Part shown: positions 2,212 through 53,206 of the stretch, in pieces | Layout of the letters: every line of letters begins with the position of its first letter | How positions within the stretch are numbered: position 1 is the first letter of the stretch | Source of the DNA: a phage | Length of the DNA: 64,000 nt | Reading direction: 5' to 3' (one strand) | Sequence record: PZ386971.1 | Notes under the pieces: model-generated | Database searches by the model: none | The model's input: only the letters and a program-made list of their open reading frames with translations | What the model was told of the DNA's origin: nothing | Position numbers and translations under genes: made by a program

Positions 2212-2263
2212 TCACTAAATATCTTTCAAATTGAGCGAAACTCTACAGAGAAGGAATAAGATT

Positions 2264-5022: not shown

Positions 5023-6801
5023 TTCCAGTTCATACCGGATAAGACCACACCCCCAGATACGCCCCAACCCGGCTTCCACCGACAGCATATCCTCTGTTTT
5101 GCCTTCTATATCGTATCCAAGTTTAAGGAATTTCTCTTTCCTGAAATTGAATTTGTGTATACGTAAGCTATAGTCTGGTGTCACATATTTGTAATCAGGG
5201 GGAAGGATTTCCTTTTCAACAAATCCGTTATTCAGGTAAACATTTTTCAGACGACTGACAACACAACGATCACCAAAAGAATATACTGTCTCACCCCGAT
5301 GTCGAGCGATATAATATTTCAGCAAGCGTGAGAATGCGCCATGGCAATTGTTAGAAGCAAATCTCACCAATTCAATACCATGCACTCGTTTGGTAAACAA
5401 CATCACCGCCTGGATATTCCCAGTTTTGTCTACAAGGTGTATATAATCTGTCGCCACCACACCACCTTGTATATGGAATCGGTCGAGAAAGTCCTTGGAC
5501 GTCCTATAGGAGCCTTCCAAAATGGTATGTTGGCGAGCGTATGACAATGGTTTCCCTATCCCCAATTTTGCTTTTAGGAGTGATTTAACCACTTCCTGTT
5601 TGTCACGCCACTCATCTTCCCAGATATGGATTAATTGAATACCCTGGGATTCACAGTGCATAGTCTTTTCAAGATGGTAGTCTTTGTATCGATGTTTCTC
5701 CGAATGCCAATACAACCCATTAAATTCTATTGCCAACTTATGTTCTGGGCAGTATATGTCTATCTGGCGTGTGGTCGCCCTCCCGTCGAACATTTTACCT
5801 CTGAGGACGGAGAAATTACCAGATTCATAAACGACACCCAATGAATCCAGGTATGAACATATTTCTATTTCTGGCTGTGTTTGGCTTTGGCTGCTGGGGT
5901 ATGTGAAAGAGTTCCTATATTCTTCAGAAGAGAAATAGTGAGGTACGCCGTATTTTTCTTTTGAAATGATCCTGGTATTGGCCTGGCTTCTATCCCATAT
6001 AGCCTTTACCTTCAACGGATAATCAACCCCATATTTTAAGACGCATGTTTTCTTTCTCTTTTCTATAATGGAATTGAGGAACATTGGATGATCCACACCA
6101 TAGATCTTCCTCCAAGTCTCAATCACCCTTTCCCTCACTTCTGGCATTTTCATGACGTGTGATACGCCATAGCGTTCCATGACAGAAGCAGCCACTCTGT
6201 CCTTTATAACATCAGACTTCATAGGGTGGTCGACCCCATATTTCTTAAGGGCAGTTTCCCGTGACTTTTGTTTTACTTCTTCCAGTTGGAATATGTTGGC
6301 TACGCCATATTTCTCTGTTATGGCGTTTTCTAGGTTGGCCCGTTCTGAGCCTCCCACCTTCATTGATTCTCGTTGGCATTCTTCGGAACAAAACTTTTTG
6401 TATCTGGGCGGTTGGGCTTCCATTTCTAAGCCGACGTCAGCACCGCAAGTGGCACACTGCGACTTCGGAATATCGTACAGCCAAGCAGTTATCGCTTGTG
6501 GTTCTTCTAATAGGTCGTTGTGTGACACCACGTATCCAACAACATCAACCCCAGTATGGGCCGTGAGTAGGGGATGAGAGATAAGTTTGTAGTTCAACGA
6601 ACCATCTTTCTTCCTGAGTTTACTATCAACCCAAGAGCGGCATTCGGTTTCGGTCGTCGGGATGTCATCCAACAAACCCGGATTGCGTTTCATCGTTCCC
6701 AGCATGAATGATTTGCATTCGTCACTACAATACAACGCAGCCTTCCTGGTTGGGGTGAACGGTTTGTGGCAGCATAAACAATTTTTATCGGGGAATGGCA
6801 T
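5017..6801 (-). CDS. Homing-endonuclease-like protein: N-terminal Cys cluster, six tandem KYGV..HP repeats, Vsr/DUF559-like PD-(D/E)XK nuclease domain
   Basis: 594 aa from ATG 6801 (GAGGAT SD); N-terminal CLCCH..C..C; repeats KYGVANI / KYGVDHPM / RYGVSHVM / IYGVDHPM / KYGVDYPL / KYGVPHYF; IDIYCPEHKLAIEFNGLYWHSE...IHIWEDEW resembles the Vsr/DUF559 fold; antisense insertion between conserved sheath and tube genes. Confidence 0.55.
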   Translation of the reverse strand: MPFPDKNCLCCHKPFTPTRKAALYCSDECKSFMLGTMKRNPGLLDDIPTTETECRSWVDSKLRKKDGSLNYKLISHPLLTAHTGVDVVGYVVSHNDLLEEPQAITAWLYDIPKSQCATCGADVGLEMEAQPPRYKKFCSEECQRESMKVGGSERANLENAITEKYGVANIFQLEEVKQKSRETALKKYGVDHPMKSDVIKDRVAASVMERYGVSHVMKMPEVRERVIETWRKIYGVDHPMFLNSIIEKRKKTCVLKYGVDYPLKVKAIWDRSQANTRIISKEKYGVPHYFSSEEYRNSFTYPSSQSQTQPEIEICSYLDSLGVVYESGNFSVLRGKMFDGRATTRQIDIYCPEHKLAIEFNGLYWHSEKHRYKDYHLEKTMHCESQGIQLIHIWEDEWRDKQEVVKSLLKAKLGIGKPLSYARQHTILEGSYRTSKDFLDRFHIQGGVVATDYIHLVDKTGNIQAVMLFTKRVHGIELVRFASNNCHGAFSRLLKYYIARHRGETVYSFGDRCVVSRLKNVYLNNGFVEKEILPPDYKYVTPDYSLRIHKFNFRKEKFLKLGYDIEGKTEDMLSVEAGLGRIWGCGLIRYELEN

Positions 6802-6882
6802 AATAAATATCCTCACTTTGGAGTATTTTAACCCCCATTTATTTCAAAACTAAATATTTACACTATTCAGAGGAGAACGACC

Positions 6883-7416
6883 ATGGCTACAGTTAATGAA
6901 TTCAGAGCAGCTATGTCACGCGGGGGTGGCGTTCAGCGCCAACACCGCTGGCGTGTGACTGTTAACTTCCCTTCCTTCGTGGCTGGAAGCGATACCATCC
7001 GTGATGTTTCGCTGTTGGCGGTGACCACAAATACCCCAACAGGCCAGCTCGGGGAGATACTCGTCCCATGGGGTGGTCGTGAACTTCCATTCCCAGGTGA
7101 CCGTCGTTTTGAGGCTCTGCCTGTAACGTTTATCAACGTTGTGGACAACGCCCCGTACAACGCATTCGAAGTCTGGCAGCAGTACATCAACGGCAGCAAC
7201 AACAACCGTGCGTCTGCTAACCCAGATGATTATTTCCGTGATGTAATCATGGAACTGCTGGATGCGAATGACAATGTCACCAAGACCTGGACCCTTCAGG
7301 GCGCCTGGCCTCAGAACCTCGGTCAGCTGGAACTGGACATGTCTGCAATGGACTCTTATACTCAGTTCACTGTTGACCTGCGTTACTTCCAGGCCATTTC
7401 AGACAAGTCTCTCTAA
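6883..7416 (+). CDS. 19: Tail tube protein (T4 gp19-like)
   Basis: 177 aa; C-terminal TWTLQGAWPQNLGQLELDMSAMDSYTQFTVDLRYFQ parallels T4 gp19 KGLWPTNVGELQLDWDSNNEIQTFEVTLALDYWE. Confidence 0.85.
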   Translation: MATVNEFRAAMSRGGGVQRQHRWRVTVNFPSFVAGSDTIRDVSLLAVTTNTPTGQLGEILVPWGGRELPFPGDRRFEALPVTFINVVDNAPYNAFEVWQQYINGSNNNRASANPDDYFRDVIMELLDANDNVTKTWTLQGAWPQNLGQLELDMSAMDSYTQFTVDLRYFQAISDKSL

Positions 7417-7482
7417 TGTCCTCAGTGCTGGGGGATCTATATTCCCCCTCACTAATTACAAGAAAATGTTGAGGACTTAATC

Positions 7483-9177
7483 ATGGCATTCGGTAATGGT
7501 GCATTCGGAAATGGGTTCTTCGGCTTGTTCGGCAGAGGCGGCAAAGTAGAAGCGCCGATTGATACCGACAAGATGGTCACGAACCAAGAAGAGAAGTTGC
7601 TTTCAAAAGCGACTGTTGTTGCGCTGGACGATTCTCAGGATGGTTCGATCATCCTCCAGGGCGGCGCGAACACATTCAATTTCGTTGGTGTTGAGAATGA
7701 GTTGCTCAACGTCAAACAGCTGGTCGAAGAGTACCAGTCTATGGCTCAGCAGCCTGAGATTCGTAAGGCTGTGGATATCATTGTCAACGACATCGTCACC
7801 TGTGAAGAGGACGAGACTCCTGTAACCATCAACCTGGAAAAGGTAGATGGCATCACAAACGAAGTCAAAGAGAAGATCACTGAAGCATTCAAAGAGATCA
7901 TGCATCTCCTTGACTTTGACAACACGGCGTATCAGAAGATCCGCAAATGGTATATTGAAGGCCGTCAGGCATTCCACGTTGTAGTGGACCCGAAGAACAA
8001 GAAAGCGGGTATCGCCAAACTCATCATGATGGACTCACGCTGTATCCGCCCAGTGTACATCGTTCAAAAGGCGATGCGCGACGGTATCGAAGTCATCAAT
8101 GACGTAAAACTTCAATACTACTACAACCCGAACTACAACCGCAACCAATTCACTGGCCAGTCCGGTACGTCTCAGAACTTCCAACCGTCACAGCAAGAGC
8201 TGGTGTTCGACGATGAGAGCATCGTGTATCTGGACAGTGGTGAAGAGCCTCTGGCGAATGGGGTTGTACCAAGCCTGCTGAACCCAGCTATCCGTCCCCT
8301 GAACAACCTTGTTACAACTGAAGATGCAACTGTGATCTATGCGATCACACGTGCTCCTGAGAAGCGAGCGTTCTATCTCGACGTGGGTACGCTGGGTAAG
8401 AAGTCGGCCGAAGAATACATGCAAGCCATGATGGGCAAATTCAAGAACCGTCTGGCGTATGATCGCACCACTGGTAAGGTGGCTGGTAACACTCATTTGA
8501 TGGGTATCGCTGAGGACTACTGGCTGCCACGTCGTGAAGGACAGAACGCAACCGAGATCTCCAACGTAGGCGGTGGCGATCAACTGGGTCAAATGGATCA
8601 TGTGGTATACTTCCGCGAGAAGCTCTACGAGGCTCTGATGATCCCTAAGAGCCGCCTGCAAGAGGAAGGTTCCATCAACATCGGTGGTTCCAATCTTGCT
8701 GAAATCACACAGGAAGAATTGCGCTTCAACAAGTTCTGTGCGAGCCTGCGCCGTCGTTATTCTTCTGGTATCTTCCTGGAACTTCTGCGCCGTCAGCTGA
8801 TATTGAAAGGCATTACAGATCAGGCTGACTGGAATGAGAAGATCAAGCCGTTCGTCAAGTTCGAATTCACTTCTGACAGCTTCATCCGTGAACAACAAGA
8901 GAACGAAATCTTGTCACAGCGTATGGCGGCTCTCGGTCAGATCGAACCATATATCGGCACTCTCTTCTCTATCGATTTTGCTCAACGCAATTTGCTGCGT
9001 ATGTCCGATGAAGACATCAAAGACCAGCAAGAGAAGATCGCGAAAGAGAAGAAAGAAGGCAAATACCCTGAAGTGCAGGCAGATGAGTCCGGCGGCTTCG
9101 GCAGCGGGGAAGTCAGTCCACTGAAATTCAGACCTAACGTCATCCCAGCGACTAACCCTCCTGGTGGTGAAGAATAA
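7483..9177 (+). CDS. 20: Portal protein (T4 gp20-like)
   Basis: 564 aa; located between tube and prohead protease as in T4; size close to gp20. Confidence 0.8.
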   Translation: MAFGNGAFGNGFFGLFGRGGKVEAPIDTDKMVTNQEEKLLSKATVVALDDSQDGSIILQGGANTFNFVGVENELLNVKQLVEEYQSMAQQPEIRKAVDIIVNDIVTCEEDETPVTINLEKVDGITNEVKEKITEAFKEIMHLLDFDNTAYQKIRKWYIEGRQAFHVVVDPKNKKAGIAKLIMMDSRCIRPVYIVQKAMRDGIEVINDVKLQYYYNPNYNRNQFTGQSGTSQNFQPSQQELVFDDESIVYLDSGEEPLANGVVPSLLNPAIRPLNNLVTTEDATVIYAITRAPEKRAFYLDVGTLGKKSAEEYMQAMMGKFKNRLAYDRTTGKVAGNTHLMGIAEDYWLPRREGQNATEISNVGGGDQLGQMDHVVYFREKLYEALMIPKSRLQEEGSINIGGSNLAEITQEELRFNKFCASLRRRYSSGIFLELLRRQLILKGITDQADWNEKIKPFVKFEFTSDSFIREQQENEILSQRMAALGQIEPYIGTLFSIDFAQRNLLRMSDEDIKDQQEKIAKEKKEGKYPEVQADESGGFGSGEVSPLKFRPNVIPATNPPGGEE

Positions 9178-9214
9178 TTCGACTAAGTATAGAAAACATT
9201 TAGAGGATATGAAC

Positions 9215-9385
9215 ATGGCCGCTATCGATCTGGTAAAAGCAATCATCGCTGGTGATACTGATGCCGCTGCTGCTGAATGCGAAATGGAGCTGTCCACTCG
9301 CGCCCAAGAACTGGTCCAGCAGGGTACTGAATATGTCTTGAACTCCCTGAGCCAAGACATGGGTCCTTTCGGCGACGACCAGTAA
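9215..9385 (+). CDS. Small acidic protein, possible prohead core protein (gp67-like position)
   Basis: 56 aa from ATG with GAGGA SD; lies between portal and protease where T4 encodes gp67/gp68. Confidence 0.35.
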   Translation: MAAIDLVKAIIAGDTDAAAAECEMELSTRAQELVQQGTEYVLNSLSQDMGPFGDDQ

Positions 9386-9397
9386 GAGGAATGTATC

Positions 9398-9703
9398 ATG
9401 GAAATCGAAGAAGTTGCAACGTTCGCTGATTTCCTGGCTTCCCGCATGGATGAGCAGAAAGTCATTGACAAGGTGAACGCAAAAGGCAAACGCCGTCGCC
9501 GTCTGCAGTGTGCTCCTGGTTTCAAACTGTCTGCGGATGGTTCCCGTTGTGAGGTGATGGTCGCCAGTGAGCGCCGTACTCGCAAGCTGGGCAACCGCAA
9601 GGCGATCCGAGCCAAGAAACGCATGGGTATGGGATACCAGCGCAAAATCGAGCGTCGTAAGAAAAAAGCAATGAAGTTCCGTCGTATGATGGGGCTGAGT
9701 TAA
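9398..9703 (+). CDS. Highly basic small protein, possible prohead core or internal protein (gp68-like position)
   Basis: 101 aa, Arg/Lys-rich C-terminal half (KRRRRL, RRKKKAMKFRR); synteny between portal and protease. Confidence 0.4.
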   Translation: MEIEEVATFADFLASRMDEQKVIDKVNAKGKRRRRLQCAPGFKLSADGSRCEVMVASERRTRKLGNRKAIRAKKRMGMGYQRKIERRKKKAMKFRRMMGLS

Positions 9704-9710
9704 GGAGCGA

Positions 9711-10379
9711 ATGATGAAACTGTTGCGTGAGATCACTGCGATAGGGAAAGACCTTCAGATTGGTGAAGCGGCCACGGCTACTGGCGGCAAAGCCATGTAC
9801 ATCGAAGGTCCATTCGTGATGTGTAACCAGGTGAACCGTAATGGTCGCAACTACGATCTCCAAAAGGTGGGTATCCCTGCTGTCGAAGCATACGACAAAG
9901 AGTATATCCAGGATCGTCGTGCAATCGGTGAACTCAAGCATCCGGATTATCCTTTCCCCGATATCGAACACGCTGCACTCAAAACCGAATCTTTGCGCTG
10001 GGAAGGCACCAACGCTATCGGTCGAGCGCGGATCCTGAATACACCGAAAGGTCAGATCATTCGTGCTCTGGCTGAAGCAGACTTCAACCTGGCCGTGTCT
10101 ACACGTGGCCTTGGTGAGACCAAGTCAGTGAACGGCTATGATGACGTTCAACCCGGCTTTATGCTCACTGCTGTTGATGCAGTCGACCGTCCTTCTGGAC
10201 AAGTTTGTTATGTAAAGGCTGTGAGCGAATCTGTGGAATGGCAGCTTGATGAATCTTCAGGAATCTGGGTTCCTAAGGACATTAAGGGGCATGTGGTCGA
10301 TTCATTGGTGAAAACCAATATTCAGTTAGAAGACGACTTCCTGCGCCGCCTCGATATCGCATTGAAACATCTGGGCTGA
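9711..10379 (+). CDS. 21: Prohead core protease (T4 gp21-like)
   Basis: YIEGPFVMCNQVNRNGRNYD / GELKHP / STRGLGE / TAVDAV align with T4 gp21 YIEGIFLQAEVVNRNKRLYP / GELNHP / SSRGLGS / VGVDAV. Confidence 0.9.
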   Translation: MMKLLREITAIGKDLQIGEAATATGGKAMYIEGPFVMCNQVNRNGRNYDLQKVGIPAVEAYDKEYIQDRRAIGELKHPDYPFPDIEHAALKTESLRWEGTNAIGRARILNTPKGQIIRALAEADFNLAVSTRGLGETKSVNGYDDVQPGFMLTAVDAVDRPSGQVCYVKAVSESVEWQLDESSGIWVPKDIKGHVVDSLVKTNIQLEDDFLRRLDIALKHLG

Positions 10380-10388
10380 ATTCAGCCT

Positions 10389-10398
10389 CACTAAATAC
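10389..10398 (+). promoter_or_regulatory. Late-promoter-like motif CACTAAATAC
   Basis: Variant of T4 TATAAATA placed 27 nt upstream of the scaffold ATG; same motif upstream of several other late genes. Confidence 0.35.
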
Positions 10399-10424
10399 TG
10401 AAAATCGTTCAGAAGGAAACAATC

Positions 10425-11276
10425 ATGAAACCTGAATTGCAAAAACTGTTTGAGGGCGTTAACGGCCTCAGCACCGACTTCCTGGATAAAGTGTCTGGTC
10501 TGCTGGAATCTAAAGTAGAAGCCGCTCGCCTGACCGCTATTCAAGAAACCGAAAACGCTGCCAATATTGAGCGCCTGCGTCTGGTTGAAGCTCATCAGGC
10601 TGAGATTGCTCAGCTGAAAGAGTCTCACTTGATGGAAATTGCGACCAAAGTCGATGGCTTCCTGAACGCGGTTGTAGAAGAGTGGGCTAACAAGAACGCT
10701 CCTGCCATCGACGCTCAGATCAAACGTGAAGCGGCTGAAAATCTGCTGGCTGGCCTGACTGGTGTTCTGAAAGAAGCTGGTATCAACTTTGCCACCGACG
10801 AAAACGGCCAGATCGCTGCGCTGACTGCCCGCCTGACCGAAGCAGAACGACGTGCTGCGATTGCCGAAAGCGAAAACCGTCAAATCAAAGAAGCCGCGAA
10901 TGCGACTCTGCGTGACTCTGTGATCGCCCGTATCTGTGAAGGTATGGTCGACACCAAGAAAGCAACGGTTGTCAATCTGCTGGAAGCTGTGCAGTTCACC
11001 ACCGAAAGCGAATTCGCTTCCCGCGTACACACCTTCCGCAACCTGGTAGAAGGTAAGTCCGTGAAGAAAGAAGGCGATGACGATGACGATGACTTCCAAG
11101 ACAAAGTCGGCGGAAAAGACGGCGATGACGACAACAAAGATGTTAAAGCCGAAGGCAAAAAGCCTAAGAAAGAAGGCGATGAAGATGACGATGAAGATGA
11201 AACAGACAAAGAGCTGAAAGAATCTATCAAGCGTCAGTTGGCCGACTATAATCGTCGCTTCGGCATCAACGGCTAA
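10425..11276 (+). CDS. 22: Prohead scaffold protein (T4 gp22-like)
   Basis: 283 aa, alpha-helical and charge-rich with acidic tail (KEGDDDDDDFQDK...DEDDDEDE); between protease and major capsid gene. Confidence 0.7.
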   Translation: MKPELQKLFEGVNGLSTDFLDKVSGLLESKVEAARLTAIQETENAANIERLRLVEAHQAEIAQLKESHLMEIATKVDGFLNAVVEEWANKNAPAIDAQIKREAAENLLAGLTGVLKEAGINFATDENGQIAALTARLTEAERRAAIAESENRQIKEAANATLRDSVIARICEGMVDTKKATVVNLLEAVQFTTESEFASRVHTFRNLVEGKSVKKEGDDDDDDFQDKVGGKDGDDDNKDVKAEGKKPKKEGDEDDDEDETDKELKESIKRQLADYNRRFGING

Positions 11277-11367
11277 TTTTAGCAGCCACAGCCCTCGAAA
11301 GGGGGCTTGATTTTGAACTACTAAGTAATTTCAACTTAACTGAATATCAATGTAAGGAATGACCATC

Positions 11368-12693
11368 ATGGCTAAGAAACTTGTTACCGAACAAATGCGC
11401 GAGCAGTGGCTGCCAGTTCTTCAGAAAGAATCTGAAAGCATCCAGCCGCTTTCTGCCGAAAACGTTGCCGTCCGTCTGCTGCAAAACCAGGCTGAGTGGA
11501 ACGCCAAAAACCTGGGCGAATCCGACGCTCCTGGCTCCGTGAACGCCTCTGTGGGCAAATGGCAGCCAGTCCTGATCGACATGGCCAAACGTCTGGCTCC
11601 GGTCAACATCGCGATGGACTTCTTCGGCGTTCAGCCGCTGTCTGGTCCTGACGGTCAGATCTTTGCTCTGCGTGCTCGCCAGGGCATTTCAGACGGCGGA
11701 TCCAACACCCAACATTCCCGTAAAGAACTGTTCATGCAGGAAGCTGATTCTGGCTACTCTGGTGACGACACTGCTCAGGCTGGCGACCCATCTGGCTTTA
11801 CCCAGACTGAGATCGAAGGTTCCGGCGCTGCCACCACCACCATCGGTAAAGGCATGTCAACTTCCGACGCTGAACTGCTGGGCACCACCACTAACCCATG
11901 GGCACGTGTTGGTATCACCGTTCAGAAAGCAACCGTGACTGCGAAGTCTCGCGGCCTGTACGCTGACTACAGCCATGAACTGCGCCAGGACATGATGGCG
12001 ATCCACGGCGAAGACGTTGACAGCATCCTGTCCGACGTGATGGTAACTGAAATTCAGGCAGAGATGAACCGTGAGTTTATCCGCACCATGAACTTCAGCG
12101 CAGTACGCTTCAAAAAATTCGGCACCAACGGTATCGTAGATATCTCCACTGACATCTCCGGTCGTTGGGCGCTGGAAAAATGGAAGTACATGACTTTCAT
12201 GCTGGAAGTCGAAGCGAACGGCATCGGTGTTGACACCCGTCGTGGTAAAGGCAACCGTGTTCTGTGCTCCCCGAACGTAGCATCCGCTCTGGCGATGTCC
12301 GGCATGCTGGATTATGCTCCGGCGCTGCAGGAAAACACCAAGCTGGCGATTGATCCGACTGGCCAGACCTTCGCTGGTGTGCTGTCTAATGGTATGCGTG
12401 TCTACATCGACCCGTATGCAGTAGCAGAGTACATCACCCTGGCATACAAAGGCGCAACCGCGCTGGATGCTGGTATCTTCTTCGCCCCATACGTTCCGCT
12501 GGAGATGTACCGCACCCAGGGTGAAACCACCTTCGCTCCACGCATGGCGTTCAAGACCCGCTACGGGATTTGTGCCAACCCGTTCGTTCAGATCCCAGCG
12601 AACCAGGATCCACAGGTCTATGTGACTGCGGATGGTATCGCCAAGGACACCAACGTGTATTTCCGCAAAGGGTTAATTAAGGGACTTTTCTAA
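11368..12693 (+). CDS. 23: Major capsid protein (T4 gp23-like)
   Basis: GVQPLSGPDGQIFALRA vs T4 GVQPMNSPTGQVFALRA; GVLSNGMRVYIDPYA...AYKGATALDAGIFFAPYV...FKTRYGI vs T4 GVLGGKYRVYIDQYA...GYKGPNEMDAGIYYAPYV...FKTRYGI; start at ATG 11368 with AAGGAA SD. Confidence 0.95.
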   Translation: MAKKLVTEQMREQWLPVLQKESESIQPLSAENVAVRLLQNQAEWNAKNLGESDAPGSVNASVGKWQPVLIDMAKRLAPVNIAMDFFGVQPLSGPDGQIFALRARQGISDGGSNTQHSRKELFMQEADSGYSGDDTAQAGDPSGFTQTEIEGSGAATTTIGKGMSTSDAELLGTTTNPWARVGITVQKATVTAKSRGLYADYSHELRQDMMAIHGEDVDSILSDVMVTEIQAEMNREFIRTMNFSAVRFKKFGTNGIVDISTDISGRWALEKWKYMTFMLEVEANGIGVDTRRGKGNRVLCSPNVASALAMSGMLDYAPALQENTKLAIDPTGQTFAGVLSNGMRVYIDPYAVAEYITLAYKGATALDAGIFFAPYVPLEMYRTQGETTFAPRMAFKTRYGICANPFVQIPANQDPQVYVTADGIAKDTNVYFRKGLIKGLF

Positions 12694-38924: not shown

Positions 38925-40643
38925 GTGACAGCATTCAACCAATATACCAAGGCGCTTGACGGCGTCGGACCAGTCAGCATAGACCGCATCAAGTCTCTTG
39001 CCACTGAGTTCTTCCCGTATGACACCGCCAACCCCGGCCAGATGGAATGCATCGTTGAAGCCATTGATGCCCTTGTGAATAAGAAATTCAAACACGTGAT
39101 CATCGAGGCTCCGACTGGTGTAGGTAAATCCCTCATCGGCACTACCATCCATAATGTGCTTCGCCATTTGGTTCTTGAGCACAACCCGTATGGTCAGTTC
39201 CGCACGTCTATCACGACGCCGACCAAAGGTTTACAGGATCAGTATGCAGCAGAGAAAGCCGTGGCGATAGACATCCTGAAGGGCAAGAAGAACTACCGTT
39301 GCCACATCAGTCCCGACCTATACTACAACGCCATTCAGTGCCGTATGGCATGCCGTGATGGCCACTGTAGTAAGAATCGTTGCCCATATGTTCAGGCGCG
39401 TCGACAGTGGACCGACGTCTCCTCCCTGCGCTGCACCAACGCCGCCATGATGGTGGAGATGTGTACGACGATTTGTATGAAGCCGGAAAACCGTGCCGAT
39501 ATGCTGATCCTTGACGAGTGTCATAAGATGCCCTCTACGCTCCTAGAGCATACTATCATGGAATACAACATAAAGGCTGTGGAAGGGTTGCTTACGATCC
39601 CCGAGGGAGTGCCTATCGTGGAGACCATCAAGGATATCATCATCCGCACAGAGAACTATGAATTGGGCAAGCTGTATTCCCTGTCTGGTGAGATGCATGC
39701 GATATTTGATGAACTACACGGCAAGGTTGAAGCCCTGTTGGAAACTCTTGAAGAACTGGTAGAGGATGAGCGCCTGACTGAAGCCCAGGTGATGAAGCTG
39801 TCTGATATTATTGATAATCTTCACAACCTCAGTGACTACTGCGGTATCATGGGGCAGACCAACGCCAGCACTTTCATCGTACAGGAGAAGGACAAGGGTA
39901 TGATTCAGTTCAAGCCTGTCATCGCCTCTGATGTATCCCAGTTCGGTCTGTTCCGCAAGGGTGACTACCACGTTCACATGTCGGCGACCATCTGCGGGAT
40001 TGACTCGTACGCCCGGTCACTGGGTATCCGCGAGGGTGAGTACCACAAGATACAGATCGGCAACCCTATCCCGATTGAGAACCGGAAAGTCAACTACATG
40101 CCCATCATGAAGATGACAGCGAACATGGGTGACTACGAGATGAAGAAGCTGGCTGAATACGTGGATGAAATTATCGCGTTCCACCCTGGGCAGTCTGGCA
40201 TCATTCACACAGTCAGTTATGACCGCGCCCTGGCTCTACAAAAGTTCAGTAAGTACCGGAATATGATTCACGTTCCTCGTACTCGTAAGGCTCTGATGGA
40301 CATCATGGAAAACGCGTTCAGGACGAAGACGCCTTGTGTCATCGCCAGTCCGGCCATGGAAGAGGGGTATGACTTCAAAGGCGATTATAGTCGATTTCAG
40401 ATCTTGATCAAAGTGCCATACGATTACCTTGGTGATCCTCTGGTGGCCCACGTCAACAGTGTGGACCCATCGGCGTACTTCAGGATGGCGGTACTGCGTA
40501 TCGTTCAGATGTGTGGGCGTTCGGTCAGGGGCGTGAATGACTGGGCTGCGACGTACATCCTTGATTCTTCTTTTGAATCACTGATGATGCGCAACCCAGA
40601 GTTCTTCCCCGCTTGGTTCACTGATGCCGTGTTTGAGGTTTAG
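38925..40643 (+). CDS. DinG/XPD-like Fe-S SF2 helicase
   Basis: 572 aa; APTGVGKS Walker A; four-Cys cluster CHISPDLYYNAIQCRMACRDGHCSKNRC; DECH box. Confidence 0.75.
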   Translation: MTAFNQYTKALDGVGPVSIDRIKSLATEFFPYDTANPGQMECIVEAIDALVNKKFKHVIIEAPTGVGKSLIGTTIHNVLRHLVLEHNPYGQFRTSITTPTKGLQDQYAAEKAVAIDILKGKKNYRCHISPDLYYNAIQCRMACRDGHCSKNRCPYVQARRQWTDVSSLRCTNAAMMVEMCTTICMKPENRADMLILDECHKMPSTLLEHTIMEYNIKAVEGLLTIPEGVPIVETIKDIIIRTENYELGKLYSLSGEMHAIFDELHGKVEALLETLEELVEDERLTEAQVMKLSDIIDNLHNLSDYCGIMGQTNASTFIVQEKDKGMIQFKPVIASDVSQFGLFRKGDYHVHMSATICGIDSYARSLGIREGEYHKIQIGNPIPIENRKVNYMPIMKMTANMGDYEMKKLAEYVDEIIAFHPGQSGIIHTVSYDRALALQKFSKYRNMIHVPRTRKALMDIMENAFRTKTPCVIASPAMEEGYDFKGDYSRFQILIKVPYDYLGDPLVAHVNSVDPSAYFRMAVLRIVQMCGRSVRGVNDWAATYILDSSFESLMMRNPEFFPAWFTDAVFEV

Positions 40644-41407
40644 TAACCCGCAACGAAGGACAGATGGCACTTGACATTCGGTTCCAACGACGTCACAGAA
40701 ACCGTCATATTGTCCGTATCTTGGCTGAAGTCAATGGTGGCGAGAGGTTTGGTCTGAATATGGTTGTAAACACTGTAGATCAGATCCTCGCCACGATACC
40801 CTACCTTCCCGTCGGTGTCTTGCCAATGACCCAGTGTTTCATCGTAGACATGCACTCTGAACTCGATCATATGGAAGAGTGCCTTGGGGATGTCCTTGAG
40901 TACGCTGGTGCCAACCACGGGAATCTCTATGCTGGAATCATTGGAGTTCCCTTCATAGACCGAAGCCCATGCAAAGGTAGGATCACCCCCAGCAACAGGG
41001 GTTCGCTTCCAGTATTGGAATTCTGGGTTGCCTGAAGCGTTCTTCTGAAGTAGAATGACCTCACCACCTTTGAAGTTCGAGGTATCGATGTCGCCTCGCT
41101 GAAGTTCATCTGCTGGAGATCCAATAAATTTCCAACCTTCGCGATCCAGTAAAGACTTATAATAGTCGGTGAACACGTTGCTGTCTTCTGCATCGTTGAT
41201 GGCATCTTTGAGACCTTGGCCTGTCACCATCTCGTTGAGCTTCAACCACATGTTCTTGACAGCAGACGCTGCTGCGACTTGTCCAGCAGTCCCACCTGCA
41301 GCATAATCATAGATGATATCTTCTGACTTGATAGCATCATAGATAGAGAGGAGCAATTGCTCAATCTGCGGGGCGGTGAGACTGAAACGATATGCGCGGG
41401 GTGCCAT
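40640..41407 (-). CDS. Hypothetical protein (255 aa)
   Basis: Minus-strand ORF from ATG with GAGGAA SD; the track's upstream extension (52 aa) looks like junk. Confidence 0.5.
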   Translation of the reverse strand: MAPRAYRFSLTAPQIEQLLLSIYDAIKSEDIIYDYAAGGTAGQVAAASAVKNMWLKLNEMVTGQGLKDAINDAEDSNVFTDYYKSLLDREGWKFIGSPADELQRGDIDTSNFKGGEVILLQKNASGNPEFQYWKRTPVAGGDPTFAWASVYEGNSNDSSIEIPVVGTSVLKDIPKALFHMIEFRVHVYDETLGHWQDTDGKVGYRGEDLIYSVYNHIQTKPLATIDFSQDTDNMTVSVTSLEPNVKCHLSFVAGY

Positions 41408-41452
41408 AGTTTCATTCCTCTTTCTATAAAACCAGTTTGGGATATTTATATC

Positions 41453-47080: not shown

Positions 47081-47695
47081 ATGACGATGACAACGTTGAA
47101 GGCCATGGCCTTGTCCGTGACCTTTACCATTGCCAGCGGGAATGTGCACGCTTCCCAAAATACAAGTCAATGTGTTTATGATTTCTCTGAGCAACAACTT
47201 AATACGATGGCAACCGCCTATCACGTAGGCAAGACACAAGATCTTGGCTACACTCTGGCCGCCATATCTTGGCGAGAGAGCCGCGCTGGTGAAGATGTAG
47301 TGTCAATGCGATACGGCCTCAAGGCGGCCAACATGGGAGCCTTCCAGAACAAGGTGAAGACAGTTGGTGATCGCGAAGGTTGTAAGAATCGCAAGTGCTA
47401 TGCCAATGTCGCCATAAAGTTGCTGACCGACCAAGAATATGCCGCGCAAGCCGCCCTCGATGAGATACAGTTCTGGCTGACCTATCACAATCAGAATATC
47501 CGCAAATCCCTCTCCTCTTACAATGCTGGCTTCGCCCGTAATCCCGCATCGAACGCTTATGCTGCTGACGTCGTGAAGAAAGCTAAATATCTTCAGAAAT
47601 GTGTGTCTTTCGAAGGCCGGACCATCTCCGAGGTAGATCCTCAGGTGATCGCCATGAACAAGCACACAATAGAGAAACTGAAGAGGACAAGATAA
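47081..47695 (+). CDS. Secreted protein with lytic-transglycosylase-like motif
   Basis: Signal-peptide-like N-terminus MTMTTLKAMALSVTFTIASGNVHA; ISWRESRAG...GAFQ weakly resembles the SLT ES/GLMQ motifs. Confidence 0.4.
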   Translation: MTMTTLKAMALSVTFTIASGNVHASQNTSQCVYDFSEQQLNTMATAYHVGKTQDLGYTLAAISWRESRAGEDVVSMRYGLKAANMGAFQNKVKTVGDREGCKNRKCYANVAIKLLTDQEYAAQAALDEIQFWLTYHNQNIRKSLSSYNAGFARNPASNAYAADVVKKAKYLQKCVSFEGRTISEVDPQVIAMNKHTIEKLKRTR

Positions 47696-48333
47696 TGAAC
47701 ATCACTCCATCTCAGGCCGGATATGAACATATCTTGGTCTTCATTGCTCTACAGGGTGCGAAGGAAGGCATCATCGTATCCGAGTACTCAGGCACGGTTC
47801 GCCTTGCCGATTATGTCGCACCAGAGGCATTTATCAAGAAGTGTATTGACGCATGGTGCCTCTATGCCCTCGGCACGTATCCTGCTCCTCCTGATGGCGA
47901 GCTGTTGTTTACTGTGCCGACTCCGGCTGCTGGCGATACGGACGCGATCTTTGCCGATATGCTGGCCAAGGGGTATCTGGTGTATGACATCACCCACGAT
48001 GTCTACTCCTTTACTTCGCTGAACACCGTGTTTGGATTCACCATCACATCTGAAGCCAACATCCCTGACTGGGGTATCTTGGCATGGGGTGTTGACGGCC
48101 TGGGTGCAACCTACGCATCGTCTGACGTCGGTGCAGTTCTGATTGATGAGGGTGTCACCATGGAGCAGTACCTTGCCCAGTTCCCTCAGCACAATATCAC
48201 AGGCAGCGACATCATTTTGGTCCAGCCTGGCGCTATCGCTCTCCCCCGTTTGGTGGATGGATGGAATCCTCGGCTGAAGGACATCATCGCAGGTATTCGA
48301 TCCCACATTCCGATTGTGAATCCGACGCCGTAA
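47695..48333 (+). CDS. Hypothetical protein (212 aa)
   Basis: ATG overlapping the upstream stop (TAATG); the track's N-terminal extension is low-complexity. Confidence 0.5.
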   Translation: MNITPSQAGYEHILVFIALQGAKEGIIVSEYSGTVRLADYVAPEAFIKKCIDAWCLYALGTYPAPPDGELLFTVPTPAAGDTDAIFADMLAKGYLVYDITHDVYSFTSLNTVFGFTITSEANIPDWGILAWGVDGLGATYASSDVGAVLIDEGVTMEQYLAQFPQHNITGSDIILVQPGAIALPRLVDGWNPRLKDIIAGIRSHIPIVNPTP

Positions 48334-48391: not shown

Positions 48392-48439
48392 TCATTCCAT
48401 AAGCAACACAACACCAACTTGAAAAGCAGGAACTACACC

Positions 48440-48715
48440 ATGAAAATTATCCTCGACGCATATATCCGCCACGGTCAGAAATACCTGATGGCCAAGGTTT
48501 ACGACGGCGAAGAATTGATCCACGCCCAGACCGCCCCAGCTGCCCAGCTGCGAGAAATCATGTCACGCGACTTCCCTGGTGTTGAAATGGTAGAGCCTAC
48601 CAACCAGGCCGAAGTAGACAAAGAGTGGGAGCGCGAATGGAGTCCAGCGGCTATCGCTCGGGCTGAAAAGAATTGGTCTAACCGCGAAAACGCAAACCGC
48701 CCTTTCCGCCGTTAA
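48440..48715 (+). CDS. Hypothetical small protein (91 aa)
   Basis: ORF downstream of cassette A copy 3. Confidence 0.45.
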   Translation: MKIILDAYIRHGQKYLMAKVYDGEELIHAQTAPAAQLREIMSRDFPGVEMVEPTNQAEVDKEWEREWSPAAIARAEKNWSNRENANRPFRR

Positions 48716-49073: not shown

Positions 49074-49148
49074 GATAAGGGGGCTGACGCTCCCTTTTGG
49101 TTTCGCTAATTAGAAGAAACCGCCGTTAATTCAATCAGGAGATATAAA

Positions 49149-52133
49149 ATGTCAAAGCCAAGTTTCCTCCAGTTCATGCAGGAAAGAGATCAGTTGGACG
49201 AAGCGTTCAACTCCGCTCCGTATGAGCTGACCATGGGTAAGAAGAACGCAGGCGATGTGTTCTTCACCTTCGTCGACGAAGATGATAAGGAATACCGCAT
49301 TCAGTTCTATACTCCTCAGGGACTGGGCAAGAGCGTTCGTCAGGTTTTCATCGGCCAGAAGCGCGGCTCCGTCTATCCTGACGCCATCGCTCGCTTCAAG
49401 AACCCAATGCGCGTTATTGCTTCCATGATCGAAGCGACCAAACAATTCATGGCGACTCCTCTGGGCAAAACTATCGATGGCTATGCTGTCAACTTCTCGA
49501 AGAAAGCGCTGGATCGCGGTATGACCCTGATTCCTAAGATCATCCGCCAGTCCGGTCTGAAGCAGAAACTGAATGTCATGGACCTGACCTACGCGCCTGT
49601 CCCTGACCGTGGTTATGTGTGGCTAGTTCGTAAGGGCAAAGATCCGGCTCAGGTATTCGACGGTCCGAAGATGCAGGGTATCACCTGGGATGATCCAGAC
49701 AAGGTCGGTGACGTTCCGGTTCAGAACAATACTCCGGATGTGGGTGTGTCATCTTCTGTTGATAATTCCAACGGATGGAAATTAACTTCAAACGGGGATC
49801 AGCCCATGTTGATATGGGCTGGTAAGGAGAGAGGCCGCACGAATACGGCAAATATCGCTCCCCACTACAATGAGCCGGGCGTGTATGTTGGCGCATACAT
49901 GAATGAGAAACCTGTGCGTGGGCAAAGTGCTGATTTCATTGCTCGTCAGTTGAAATTACCACAAGTCCCTATCAGTATCCTGAATGATTTCACCACGGCG
50001 TCCACAAAATTTTGGAAAGGTTCTCAACAGAAATCTGCGCCTGTTGTGCCGGCAGGTTCGGACAGAAATAACCCAGCCAACATTATCGGTTCTGGAACTG
50101 CTGTTATTGATGCCAAACGGCTTGGTGCTCAGGAAGTAAACGTGGAACGATTCAAAAACGGCGTTCGCATGCGTTCTCGAAACGGTGACGTCGACATCAG
50201 TATTTCTGACCCAGACTTTTCAAATGCAGCAAGTGCGGCTGATGCTGCCACAGCCTCTGTTGTGGTCAAGAACGGGCGTTACGAAGGTGCCATCAATTCA
50301 AAGCGCAAGATTGCCCGCACCTCGAACGAGCAGGGTACTGAATGGGATATTATCGGCGTCAACGGGGAAATCCTTGTCTCTATCAAGTTGAACAAAGTGT
50401 CTAAATCCACATCAGATTCGACCGAGGGTGCAACCAGTGTTGATCAATTACGTGACAGCGGTTTCATCGCTCGTGTTCTGGGTATCATTGATACCAACGT
50501 TGGGCTGGACACTTCTATTCTTCCTGGTGAAAACATCCGTCGCGTGGGCGCTGGTCGTTACACGACGACAGGCGGGTTGGTTATCGTTGTCAACTTCACA
50601 AACGTCCTCGCTGGTTTCGTTCAATACTCAGTTTTCAGCGAAATTGCTGAAGAGGAGAACGTGGCCAAAGGTAGCGCCCGTGACGTCGCCAAGGCGGTAA
50701 TTGCGTCCATCTTTGAGGTTGCTAAGACCCAGTACACTGGCAAATGGGAAATTAGCGCAGTGCCAACAAGCGCTCCATATCCTATCAAAGCCATTCGCCG
50801 TTCTCGGGGCTGGGGTTATGTGGAAACCGCAAACTGGACTCTGACAGTGTCCGACGCTGTCCTGAATCGTGTGAAGCCAGGGAACACTGCTCTGCTGGAA
50901 CTCATCAAAGAGCCTCCGCGTGGCAAGCACCTGCTGGAAATCATCCCAGAGAAGGGCGACAAGACCCTGATGCTGAAAGATCGTATTACCGGGGCCATCT
51001 ATGGTTCTATCGACCTGAATGCCCAAGGCGCTGATCTGGTCAACTCTGGAACCCTGAAGATACCAAGCAACGCCATGGTGTTTGGTGAGACTGTCAACGG
51101 TATGTCCATTCGGTGGGATGTCAATTTCCCCGAAACGGGAAAATACGCCGGTACTTCTATGATAACCAACGTGACCTATTACTACGACAAAGGTAAAGTT
51201 GCATTCACCCCAATTGTCTCTCAGAAAGGGCGTACCCTGAACAATCCGAAGACATATGAACTTCCTTTAAACAAAGATATGGTCCAGAGTGTGATTGATG
51301 AGATTTCATCAAAAATGGTATATCTTTCCAGAAACCTCCAACAGTTGAAAAGTCAGTCATACAACCCAAACCAGGTGTTCTTGAACGATATAACCATCAC
51401 GGATAAAGGTGAAGTGATTTGGAATGATTACAACTTGTCTGACGGCAAAGTTACACAAATTATGCTGTCCATGATAAGCGCAGAAAATAAACGCCTGGAG
51501 AAAGTAGCAAACACGCCGGATATCAATATCACATTGCCCAAGAAACAAGCTGAAGTGGTAGAATTTATAAACCGGATGATCGACATCGATCTCACCCCTT
51601 ATGTGAGAACCCCCAAAAAACGTGATGTGGTATTATTTGACTCTTCTGAATTGTCGATAAACCAACTCAACAACATAGAACGCCTGGGAAGAGAAACAGG
51701 AAAATGGTCTCTTCAGCCAAACGGTGGTATGGGTCATGCACTACTTCTGAAAAGCACGTCGCACAATCCGAAGGACGACCTTGCGGCATACGCCGACTCC
51801 ATTCGCGACAACGCACCAAAAGGTCGCGACCTGGATTGGCAGATCTATGCAAGCCGTGATGGTCAGACTCTGAACGTGGACTGGGATATCACCTTCCGCC
51901 GCAACACAACTGAAGGGGCATATCGCGAGTTCAAAGCTCAGATTGACCGCGCCAACCAGTACCTGCAGACACTGTACCGGGATGCGAAGTCCAAGGGTTA
52001 CAACCCGACTGAACCAAACCTGATGACTCTGGCTCGCGCCCAGCAGTCTGACCAGTGGTCACAAGACAACGGGGAAAGCGCATACAGCGAGTACGAGCAG
52101 TCCCTGGGTGGCAACATGCAGATTAAGATCTGA
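49149..52133 (+). CDS. Large hypothetical protein (994 aa)
   Basis: Long uninterrupted ORF with GGAGA SD; Asn/Gly/Ser/Thr-rich; no polymerase or ATPase motifs found. Confidence 0.6.
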   Translation: MSKPSFLQFMQERDQLDEAFNSAPYELTMGKKNAGDVFFTFVDEDDKEYRIQFYTPQGLGKSVRQVFIGQKRGSVYPDAIARFKNPMRVIASMIEATKQFMATPLGKTIDGYAVNFSKKALDRGMTLIPKIIRQSGLKQKLNVMDLTYAPVPDRGYVWLVRKGKDPAQVFDGPKMQGITWDDPDKVGDVPVQNNTPDVGVSSSVDNSNGWKLTSNGDQPMLIWAGKERGRTNTANIAPHYNEPGVYVGAYMNEKPVRGQSADFIARQLKLPQVPISILNDFTTASTKFWKGSQQKSAPVVPAGSDRNNPANIIGSGTAVIDAKRLGAQEVNVERFKNGVRMRSRNGDVDISISDPDFSNAASAADAATASVVVKNGRYEGAINSKRKIARTSNEQGTEWDIIGVNGEILVSIKLNKVSKSTSDSTEGATSVDQLRDSGFIARVLGIIDTNVGLDTSILPGENIRRVGAGRYTTTGGLVIVVNFTNVLAGFVQYSVFSEIAEEENVAKGSARDVAKAVIASIFEVAKTQYTGKWEISAVPTSAPYPIKAIRRSRGWGYVETANWTLTVSDAVLNRVKPGNTALLELIKEPPRGKHLLEIIPEKGDKTLMLKDRITGAIYGSIDLNAQGADLVNSGTLKIPSNAMVFGETVNGMSIRWDVNFPETGKYAGTSMITNVTYYYDKGKVAFTPIVSQKGRTLNNPKTYELPLNKDMVQSVIDEISSKMVYLSRNLQQLKSQSYNPNQVFLNDITITDKGEVIWNDYNLSDGKVTQIMLSMISAENKRLEKVANTPDINITLPKKQAEVVEFINRMIDIDLTPYVRTPKKRDVVLFDSSELSINQLNNIERLGRETGKWSLQPNGGMGHALLLKSTSHNPKDDLAAYADSIRDNAPKGRDLDWQIYASRDGQTLNVDWDITFRRNTTEGAYREFKAQIDRANQYLQTLYRDAKSKGYNPTEPNLMTLARAQQSDQWSQDNGESAYSEYEQSLGGNMQIKI

Positions 52134-52189
52134 TCATTGAAAGCCCCTTCGGGGGCTTATAAATAACTGAAATCCCCGAGGAGATTAAG

Positions 52190-52759
52190 ATGAAACCGTT
52201 TATCGAATATTTTAAAGAACAAGCCGCTAAACCTCAGACCCATGCTGGTGTCCAGGGTAAGACCGTATCCATCACCAAGCAAGCTGACGGCACCCAGTGG
52301 TGTTCCGGCGCTACCGTGACCCAGATCACCCCTGACAATCAGGCGGATGTCTACAACCTGGAGTTAACCAACGGCAACACTATCAAGGTGAAGCTGACTC
52401 CGGATCAGACCCATGGCATTACCCAAGGCCAGGAAGTTGTTGCTGTCCATGACGGTTTCGAATTCTTCTTTGGCAAGTCTGCCGACAAAGGCCAGGTGAC
52501 CGAATCCTATGCTCAGGAACTGGCGAACATGGACAAGATGATCGGTAAAGCACTGGGTGCTGGCAAGTCTCGCAAGAGTGGTCGTACTGAGTTTGAATAC
52601 TCTGGCATCCCTGGCATCGGCAAGGCGATCACCGTGAACTTCGGTGGTGAAGATGACCCGTATGTGATCGTCACCTGCAACGGCAAGGAGCATGATATCA
52701 GCAAGGGTAAAAACCTGGCTGCTGACATTGCCAAGTTCCTCGGTGTTAAGCCTGTCTAG
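52190..52759 (+). CDS. Hypothetical protein (189 aa)
   Basis: ORF with GAGGAG SD. Confidence 0.5.
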   Translation: MKPFIEYFKEQAAKPQTHAGVQGKTVSITKQADGTQWCSGATVTQITPDNQADVYNLELTNGNTIKVKLTPDQTHGITQGQEVVAVHDGFEFFFGKSADKGQVTESYAQELANMDKMIGKALGAGKSRKSGRTEFEYSGIPGIGKAITVNFGGEDDPYVIVTCNGKEHDISKGKNLAADIAKFLGVKPV

Positions 52760-52852: not shown

Positions 52853-53206
52853 ATGGTCAACGCTAGTATTTTCATCAACCGTGGATTGCTTGCTATAGCC
52901 CACTCTCATGCCTTACACTTCGTTACAACGTCCTATGCCAAGCACAAGGCACTCGGGGAGTTCTACGGGGAACTGGAGGACTTACTAGACACGTTTACCG
53001 AAGCATACATCGGCGCGGGTGGTCAGTATGTTCCATCATTCGAGAATATCAAATTGTACAATCCTGATCCGATATCGTATATCAACAGCGTAATCATCGA
53101 CGTCAATGGGATCTACAATCAATGTGACAGCCATTTACAAAACACGCTTGACGAAATCAAAACTCTGTGCTATCAAACGATTTACAAACTGAAGCAACTG
53201 GCGTAG
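52853..53206 (+). CDS. Hypothetical protein (117 aa)
   Basis: Preceded by ccccc-TAAATACA-ggggg hairpin carrying the late-like motif. Confidence 0.45.
   Translation: MVNASIFINRGLLAIAHSHALHFVTTSYAKHKALGEFYGELEDLLDTFTEAYIGAGGQYVPSFENIKLYNPDPISYINSVIIDVNGIYNQCDSHLQNTLDEIKTLCYQTIYKLKQLA

Follow-up and report, generated by a model that had tools for sequence, protein, structure and literature searches.

The phage DNA analysed here (sequence record PZ386971.1; 64,000 nucleotides, hereafter the window) contains a gene for a protein of 994 amino acids (aa), which is probably a large head-internal protein of the T4 Alt/internal protein (IP) class, processed after glutamate 18 (E18) and ejected together with the DNA. 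A first-pass annotation, made from the sequence alone, had guessed at a virion-packaged or injected protein on grounds of size and composition. Packaging is supported by other evidence, namely the virion proteomes of related phages in which orthologs were found, homology of the N-terminal domain to that of Alt, and a module related to the internal head protein Ip9; injection is inferred from Alt and the internal proteins. The open reading frame (ORF) and its parts are as follows.

49149-52133, + strand: 994-aa ORF, ATG start, stop codon included; member of PHROG 3867; predicted internal head protein of the Alt type
49137-49141, + strand: ribosome-binding site AGGAG, 7 nt 5' of the ATG, read from the sequence
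49149-49202, + strand: leader, aa 1-18, MSKPSFLQFMQERDQLDE; predicted propeptide or targeting leader ending in L16-D17-E18, with the predicted prohead-protease site between E18 and A19
49203-49742, + strand: module A, aa 19-198; carrier domain resembling the Alt N-terminus, GNAT-like in its alpha/beta fold and probably not catalytic
49743-50042, + strand: module B, aa 199-298; cargo that some close relatives lack or carry twice, delimited by BLAST breakpoints near 198 and 298; AlphaFold2 (AF2) pLDDT 70-82
50043-50435, + strand: module C, aa 299-429; beta-rich insertion found in only around half of the homologs, absent in Sajous1 gp214
50436-51515, + strand: module D, aa 430-789; core common to the Ackermannviridae orthologs; 35% identity to Sajous1; AF2 pLDDT ~80-90
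51516-51776, + strand: module E, aa 790-876; homologous to mature Ip9, a T-even internal head protein
51777-52130, + strand: module F, aa 877-994; portable C-terminal domain with the signatures TFRRNT and YSEYEQS(L/I)GG

Position and length of the ORF are exactly those of the first-pass annotation, which ranked it second in size; it is the largest in the window, followed in the ORF listing by ORFs of 782, 781 and 760 aa. The probability of 994 stop-free codons arising by chance is ~2e-21, and the start codon is corroborated by an N-terminus that is near-identical across 120 homologs. The protein had been described as rich in Asn, Gly, Ser, Thr and Lys. This holds only as a mild skew (Asn 6.7%; Gly, Ser, Thr and Lys 6.3-7.6%), and the clearer oddities are the complete absence of Cys and the presence of only four His. 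The source phage belongs to the ViI-like Ackermannviridae (Aglimvirinae), with Escherichia phage vB_EcoM-ZQ1 as top DNA match (96.8% identity). The gene lies on the + strand, with the genes for the gp55 sigma factor and gp47/gp46 upstream and those for primase, endolysin, PhoH and ribonucleotide reductase downstream. Searches of the full protein against Pfam, NCBIfam, PADLOC and PDB sequences gave no significant match, in line with the earlier remark that no enzyme motif was recognisable, and a profile of 37 family members did not match any PDB sequence. The PHROGs assignment is phrog_3867, "unknown function". In relatives, the gene is mostly labelled "hypothetical", as are its neighbours (the downstream genes had been noted as unassigned before), with "tail completion protein" and "endolysin" as stray labels.

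As judged by profile comparison, residues ~14-180 share homology with the N-terminal domain of Alt of the T4 type, an ADP-ribosyltransferase that is carried in the head and injected. An hhalign comparison of 36 module-A sequences with 11 Straboviridae Alt N-termini yielded a Prob of 96.2% (E 2.7e-9, 162 columns) and paired residues 14-180 of the 994-aa protein with residues 2-181 of T4 Alt. The hidden Markov model (HMM) of module A matched 12 of 12 Alt proteins, collinearly and only within residues ~2-180 (best score 32.3 bits). When the full-length structural model was compared with viral predicted structures (BFVD) by Foldseek, Alt of Aeromonas phage phiAS5 was found (probability 1.0, E 2e-4, 185 columns); beyond orthologs, the same search returned two other phage ADP-ribosyltransferases (ARTs) and a Zeta-toxin-domain protein of Agrobacterium phage Atu_ph07. 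As in T4 Alt, an Alt-type ART is kept downstream of the domain in three distant module-A proteins, P0198, P0203 and P0190 (PF03496, E 1e-18; phrog_802 at positions ~361-641, E 1e-29 to 1e-36; BLASTP matches to T4 Alt 410-588). Such proteins are metagenomic, and no isolated phage with the fusion of N-terminal module and ART seen in P0198 was found. Further features shared with T4 Alt are the extent of the domain (~165 residues), a short leader with (L/I)-x-E at the aligned position, the large size of the protein and the location of the gene outside the head cluster. Unlike T4 Alt, the 994-aa protein has no ART, possesses a leader of 18 instead of 6 residues, carries different cargo modules and is not covered by PF26846; its orthologs also seem to be far more abundant than Alt with its ~40 copies (PMC9958956).

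The alignment of the 36 module-A sequences (25-55% identity) contains only two invariant residues, Met1 and E18. The latter is embedded in the motif (L/I/V/F)-x-E-(A/S)-(F/L)-(N/D)-(S/T)-x-P-Y, in which P3 is always L, I, V or F; the preceding leader is variable, acidic/hydrophobic and 3-45 residues long across the family. L16-x-E18 is the sole LxE conserved in 36 of 36 sequences of the full-length alignment. In T4, the protease gp21 trims short N-terminal peptides off IPI-III and Alt, and a 10-residue capsid-targeting sequence (CTS) directs proteins to the prohead core (PMC9958956; PMC9026906). According to GenBank X15811, six residues are removed from T4 Alt. Since E18 is invariant, is paired with the invariant E6 of Alt in the profile alignment, and T4 Alt loses six residues, cleavage by the prohead protease after E18 is predicted. 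The mature protein would then have a mass of 107.8 kDa and a pI of 9.0, and would start with AFNSAPYE (AFNSAPYELTMGK). A prohead protease and scaffold or core proteins are listed in related virions (Sajous1 gp154-156; LIMEstone1 ORF141).

That orthologs are associated with virions is already in the literature. The syntenic ortholog in Sajous1 (Kuttervirus) is gp214, with 74% identity in the N-domain, 35% in the core and 77% in the C-domain; there, the RegB-like gene is followed by two small genes, the large gene, further small genes and the primase gene. In CsCl-purified Sajous1 virions, gp214 was detected with 196 spectra, the third highest number after the major capsid protein (924) and VriC (311) (PMC10892097, Table 6), which by our own rough arithmetic amounts to ~1/10 of the capsid protein when normalised by length. 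In LIMEstone1 (Limestonevirus), the ortholog is represented by ORF082 and ORF081, split by a 1-nt difference from the 531-aa gene of JA15. For ORF81, 23 unique peptides amounted to 55% coverage, a result surpassed only by the tail sheath (PMC3296691, Table 2); with 23 and 4 peptides, respectively, ORF81 and ORF82 are both "confirmed structural proteins". The proteome of AG3 was uninformative, as only six gel bands were analysed.

Concerning the LIMEstone1 gene model, ORF082 and ORF081 overlap (positions 2197-3793 of the stretch examined), and the corresponding region of JA15 (6001-7596 of its stretch) is 100% identical except that it is one base shorter and holds one undivided gene of 531 aa. 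A sequencing or frameshift artefact probably accounts for the split.

The part of the protein behind module A is composed of exchangeable modules, the borders of which were taken from recurrent BLAST breakpoints against the 120 homologs (~198, 298, 416-430, 789 and 867-877). Phages in which module A is >95% identical may possess, lack or duplicate modules B, C and E; coverage falls to 66-80 of the 120 homologs in the region of module C, and members of the family are between 645 and 1208 aa long. When 1.84 billion representative proteins were searched with a profile, 143 relatives emerged. Module A was found in ~70 clusters, always at the N-terminus of proteins of 300-1409 aa with unrelated downstream parts, and module F in ~55 clusters, mostly at the extreme C-terminus of proteins of 110-280 aa. 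In the window, no further copies of the N-terminal or C-terminal module or of their motifs were found in any of the six frames. The C-terminal module showed no relation to Alt proteins. For modules B, C and D, modelled with fair confidence (pLDDT 70-90), searches of PDB and BFVD gave no convincing match outside the family.

Module E links the protein to the T-even internal proteins. PHROG profile phrog_7673, "internal head protein", matches aa 796-851 (E 3.8e-10), and residues ~794-868 align with the whole mature part of Ip9 from RB32 and VR5 (90 aa); in BLASTP, module E is 36-44% identical to these two proteins (pairwise E 4e-15 and 1e-13). Genes for Ip9 were detected by tblastn in >150 Straboviridae records. 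They encode the canonical CTS MKTYQEFI(S/A)E, lie in the hypervariable ipI locus and are annotated as replacing ipI. Module F also occurs alone behind leaders resembling a CTS: the leaders of module-F proteins are enriched in h-x-E[AMSG] (26/53 versus 5/93 window ORFs, Fisher p 1e-9), and one of these proteins begins with MKTFKEFVKE, a canonical MKTFKEF leader as in RB32 Ip5 and Ip7. With the T-even internal proteins (IPI, IPII, IPIII, as well as Ip5, Ip7, Ip8 and Ip9 of the ipI locus), the 994-aa protein thus shares a domain similar to mature Ip9, a leader with a CTS-like F-x-x-F-M-x-E, a neighbouring 189-aa gene with a near-canonical CTS and a content that is polymorphic between close relatives. 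Unlike these single domains of 8-20 kDa with a CTS of 10 residues, it is a chain of 110 kDa with at least six modules and a folded carrier domain. Because the cargo chain is exchangeable, with E as an Ip9 domain, F alone behind CTS-like leaders, and ART and Zeta-toxin in relatives, the protein resembles a relative of these polymorphic T-even proteins that is built of several modules.

The following course of events is proposed. The protein would be synthesised with the 18-residue leader and the ~165-residue Alt-N-homologous domain, both of which, by homology with Alt and the CTS-bearing T4 internal proteins, would direct it into the prohead scaffolding core. A prohead protease of the T4 gp21 type would cut after E18 and release the mature protein of ~108 kDa with a pI of ~9. 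This would stay in the filled head, in a roughly estimated molar amount of ~1/10 of the major capsid protein, and would leave the head with the DNA at infection, as Alt and the internal proteins do. Its cargo would then act early in infection, be it on host defences, in host takeover or on the condensed DNA.

The surroundings of the gene contain a terminator-like hairpin, a late promoter and further genes for virion proteins:

47692-48333, + strand: 213-aa DUF7270 gene; virion protein, LIMEstone1 ORF85 "confirmed structural protein", Vi01_096c "phage associated protein"
49077-49096, + strand: terminator-like GC-rich hairpin and T-run between the upstream 111-aa ORF and the 994-aa ORF
52142-52165, + strand: hairpin AGCCCCTTCGGGGGCT followed by TATAAATA (52158-52165), consensus of a late promoter of the T4 gp55 type, for the gene that follows
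52190-52759, + strand: 189-aa gene with the T4-CTS-like leader MKPFIEYFKE/QAA; candidate small internal head protein
52853-53206, + strand: 117-aa DUF5856 gene, assigned by Pfam and PHROG; virion orthologs Sajous1 gp217, LIMEstone1 ORF78 and Vi01_092c

The product of the 189-aa gene is probably a small internal head protein. Its leader agrees with that encoded by T4 ipII and ipIII (MKTYQEFIAE/A) at M1, K2, the aromatic residue 4, E6, the aromatic residue 7 and E10, and its orthologs are found in virions of Sajous1 (gp215, 32 spectra) and LIMEstone1 (ORF80); in Pfam, only a weak TOBE-like match was obtained. The DUF5856 protein is Dps/ferritin-like according to the Sajous1 paper (PMC10892097), and a Dps-like virion protein would fit co-packaging with DNA. 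In LIMEstone1, the four genes of this cluster encode virion proteins, and the authors remarked on an unexplained cluster of structural proteins, ORF78-85 (PMC3296691). In Vi01, the ortholog Vi01_094c and the same three neighbours are annotated as "phage associated protein" and the surrounding genes as "uncharacterised".

Only two exact copies of TATAAATA are present in the 64 kb, and the same element was given as "putative late promoter" in LIMEstone1. The second copy (41443-41450, - strand) is located ~36 nt 5' of a 255-aa gene (40640-41407, - strand, phrog_3833), whose Sajous1 ortholog gp203 was detected with 39 spectra in virions. As both exact sites precede genes for virion proteins, they mark such genes outside the structural module in this window.

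Several points weigh against the assignment of the 994-aa protein as an ejected internal head protein. Regarding the homology to Alt, the sequence of T4 Alt alone did not reach significance when compared with the module-A profile (hhalign Prob 2.5%), and Alt genes were therefore gathered from 11 further Straboviridae genera or species; a wide search with the T4 Alt N-terminus had returned five proteins only, too few for a profile. The significance of the link needed the Alt family profile, single-sequence methods being blind to the similarity, and the E-values of the module-A hmmsearch refer to a database of 12 sequences only. PF26846, the Pfam family of the Alt N-terminus, is listed for Alt relatives and for none of the 120 Ackermannviridae homologs listed; current annotation therefore misses the link. 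Regarding the virion, the proteomic evidence comes from orthologs in other genera, in that published proteomes were mapped by synteny and BLASTP, and not from the source phage itself; whole-virion proteomics cannot separate head from tail, and the head location is deduced. Regarding expression, the gene lies among replication genes, although T4 alt and the ip genes are likewise placed outside the head-gene cluster. Upstream of the ORF, a search that allowed up to one mismatch found no late promoter of the TATAAATA type, a scan for sigma-70-type promoters gave hits at chance level, and the LIMEstone1 authors predicted a middle promoter two genes upstream (PMC3296691); the lack of a late promoter together with the upstream hairpin is a caveat on the timing of expression. 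Finally, an "effector" role of the cargo modules B, C and D is a guess, and the very high abundance is at least as compatible with an internal protein that is structural or bound to DNA as with an enzyme-like effector.

The last two points lead to the strongest of the other explanations, a head-internal protein without effector function, such as a core remnant or a DNA-condensing or pressure-modulating protein, the job of which ends in the capsid or at ejection. It is rather unlikely, and nonetheless a real possibility. Apart from the abundance, the mildly basic character of the mature protein, the missing enzyme signature and the Dps/ferritin-like protein in the neighbourhood are compatible with such a role, and T4 IPII and IPIII likewise have no known effector function (PMC9026906). 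On the other hand, a mosaic cargo that varies between near-identical phages is encountered more typically in conflict proteins than in structural parts, and relatives place toxin-type enzymes on the same carrier. Moreover, Ip9 is annotated as replacing ipI in the hypervariable locus, and T4 IPI inhibits the GmrSD endonuclease (PMC9958956).

A tail or baseplate component, as implied by the "tail completion protein" label of Harris et al. 2024 (PMC10892097) and a few GenBank records, is improbable. The protein is abundant in whole virions, in which head and tail are not separable, and the label is used for gp214 in the Sajous1 paper, where the operon table confirms that this gene is meant, as well as in the record of Klebsiella phage UPM 2146. 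However, the paper gives the name without evidence, and since the gene goes under "endolysin" or "hypothetical" in other records, these labels look arbitrary. Separate tail-completion proteins are present in the same proteomes (Sajous1 gp146 and gp168; LIMEstone1 ORF127, labelled T4 gp3). No similarity to tail families was found in Pfam, PHROGs, NCBIfam, PDB or BFVD, and the structure searches against the latter two did not assign a known tail-fibre or baseplate fold, which the first-pass annotation had named as evidence against packaging. The positive homologies, i.e. the Alt N-domain, Ip9 and CTS-like leaders, are all to head-internal proteins.

An enzymatic function, either as ART or, via a GNAT-like N-domain, as acetyltransferase, is very improbable. 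ART-bearing family members exist, and the first-pass annotation had suggested looking for an ART signature; this is present in the three distant relatives sharing the N-terminal domain and absent from the 994-aa protein. The latter had no match to PF03496, the R-S-E-type ART domain, at E<=1 and no ART PHROG at E<=0.01, whereas the same searches readily detected the ART in T4 Alt, P0198, P0203 and P0190. An assignment as ADP-ribosyltransferase was rejected accordingly.

The resemblance to acetyltransferases concerns the N-terminal module. AF2 modelled module A with a pLDDT of 30-50 when the shallow family alignment was used, and with a pLDDT of 88.7 and a pTM of 0.81 when a diverse alignment was supplied. 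Among the top 50 Foldseek matches of this model in the PDB, ~40 were GNATs, with probabilities up to 0.99, but weak by other measures (TM 0.3-0.45, best E 3.7e-3). The predicted topology of sheet and helices is similar to that of GNATs, but the pyrophosphate-binding acetyl-CoA loop Q/R-x-x-G-x-G/A before helix alpha3 is absent; the segment before helix 86-101 reads F-K-N-P-x-R-V-I-A-T. The conserved residues of module A (G, F, Y, P and T) are of structural and not of catalytic types. On the basis of this model, module A is probably a non-catalytic GNAT-like scaffold, which amounts to a resemblance in fold only. The full-length AF2 model had no convincing match in the PDB. Its GNAT matches were first placed in module D (region of G508), a placement that was abandoned; the model of the N-terminal module alone recovered the same targets, and the matches most likely originate from that module.

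The least credible explanation is that phage preparations are contaminated by the protein, as an early or middle product of the replication region that is foreign to the virion: the gene lies between those for gp46/47 and primase and has no late promoter, and Harris et al. caution that proteins with low counts may be contaminants (PMC10892097), but the 196 spectra and the 55% coverage that two different laboratories obtained from CsCl- or gel-purified virions, the recurrence of the same four cluster genes in the LIMEstone1 proteome and as "phage associated" in Vi01, and the homology to head-packaged proteins all stand against it.

Going beyond the assignment as an Alt/IP-class internal head protein, it is conceivable, although as a tentative proposal that may well not hold, that the Alt N-domain is a general capsid-targeting carrier across the T4 superfamily, behind which the cargo is swapped. 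The result would be a polymorphic system of injected effectors parallel to that of MuF, with the 994-aa protein as a "polyvalent internal protein". This proposal spans Straboviridae, Ackermannviridae and relatives from Vibrio, Aeromonas, Ralstonia and Agrobacterium phages, with ARTs, Zeta-toxin-like, Ip9-like and other internal-protein modules as cargo. Like the MuF polymorphic effectors or "polyvalent proteins", the family has a conserved end for incorporation into the head, an exchangeable other end and a predicted delivery with the DNA (PMC5512222, PMC9503650). Unlike these, the 994-aa protein possesses an Alt-N-like carrier, has no MuF match in Pfam, comes from a phage of the T4 superfamily and contains mostly cargo without a recognisable enzyme or toxin fold. 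If the proposal is true, several anti-defence or takeover modules would be delivered in about a hundred copies per virion, and module swaps would help to set the host range of Ackermannviridae biocontrol phages.

In the papers searched, neither the Alt N-domain link nor the mosaic architecture was found described, nor were the invariant site of cleavage, the module resembling Ip9 and the portable domain at the C-terminus. Ackermannviridae phages are widely used and engineered to detect Salmonella, E. coli O157, Klebsiella and Dickeya and for their biocontrol; even so, one of the most abundant virion proteins of these phages is labelled "hypothetical" or is mislabelled. The link to the Alt carrier, to a maturation site and to the T-even internal proteins provides a concrete, testable model of its entry into the capsid. 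Two portable domains are newly defined, the Alt-N-like carrier and the TFRRNT...YSEYEQSLGG C-terminal domain. Leader and N-terminal module are suggested as a natural tag for loading foreign proteins, as is the CTS in T4. The mosaic cargo is a candidate source of injected takeover or anti-defence factors and could explain differences in plating that tailspikes do not.

Further observations were made on related genes and records. In Vibrio phage 144E46.1 (Ackermannviridae), positions 6421-12072 of the stretch examined contain two adjacent module-A genes of 738 and 1026 aa with an 87-aa gene in between; these tandem paralogs occupy the same genomic position as the 994-aa gene, carry different cargo and have no C-terminal module. 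In the metagenomic proteins P0173 and P0195, N-terminal parts of the small upstream window genes (48437-48715 and 47692-48333) are fused straight to the YSEYEQSLGG C-terminal module, which suggests recombination or deletion across the locus. Contamination or mislabelling probably explains the public records that attribute fragments of T4 Alt to "Enterococcus faecalis", and likewise the record of "Enterococcus phage Efm 3-10", in which module E has a 93% match. The gene at 47081-47695, called "RegB endoribonuclease" in relatives, encodes a signal-peptide-like N-terminus (MTMTTLKAMALSVTFTIASGNVHA) and showed a weak match to the lytic-transglycosylase SLT family below the cut-off (Pfam E 6.6e-4); its Sajous1 ortholog was detected with 31 spectra in virions, and the RegB label may be wrong.

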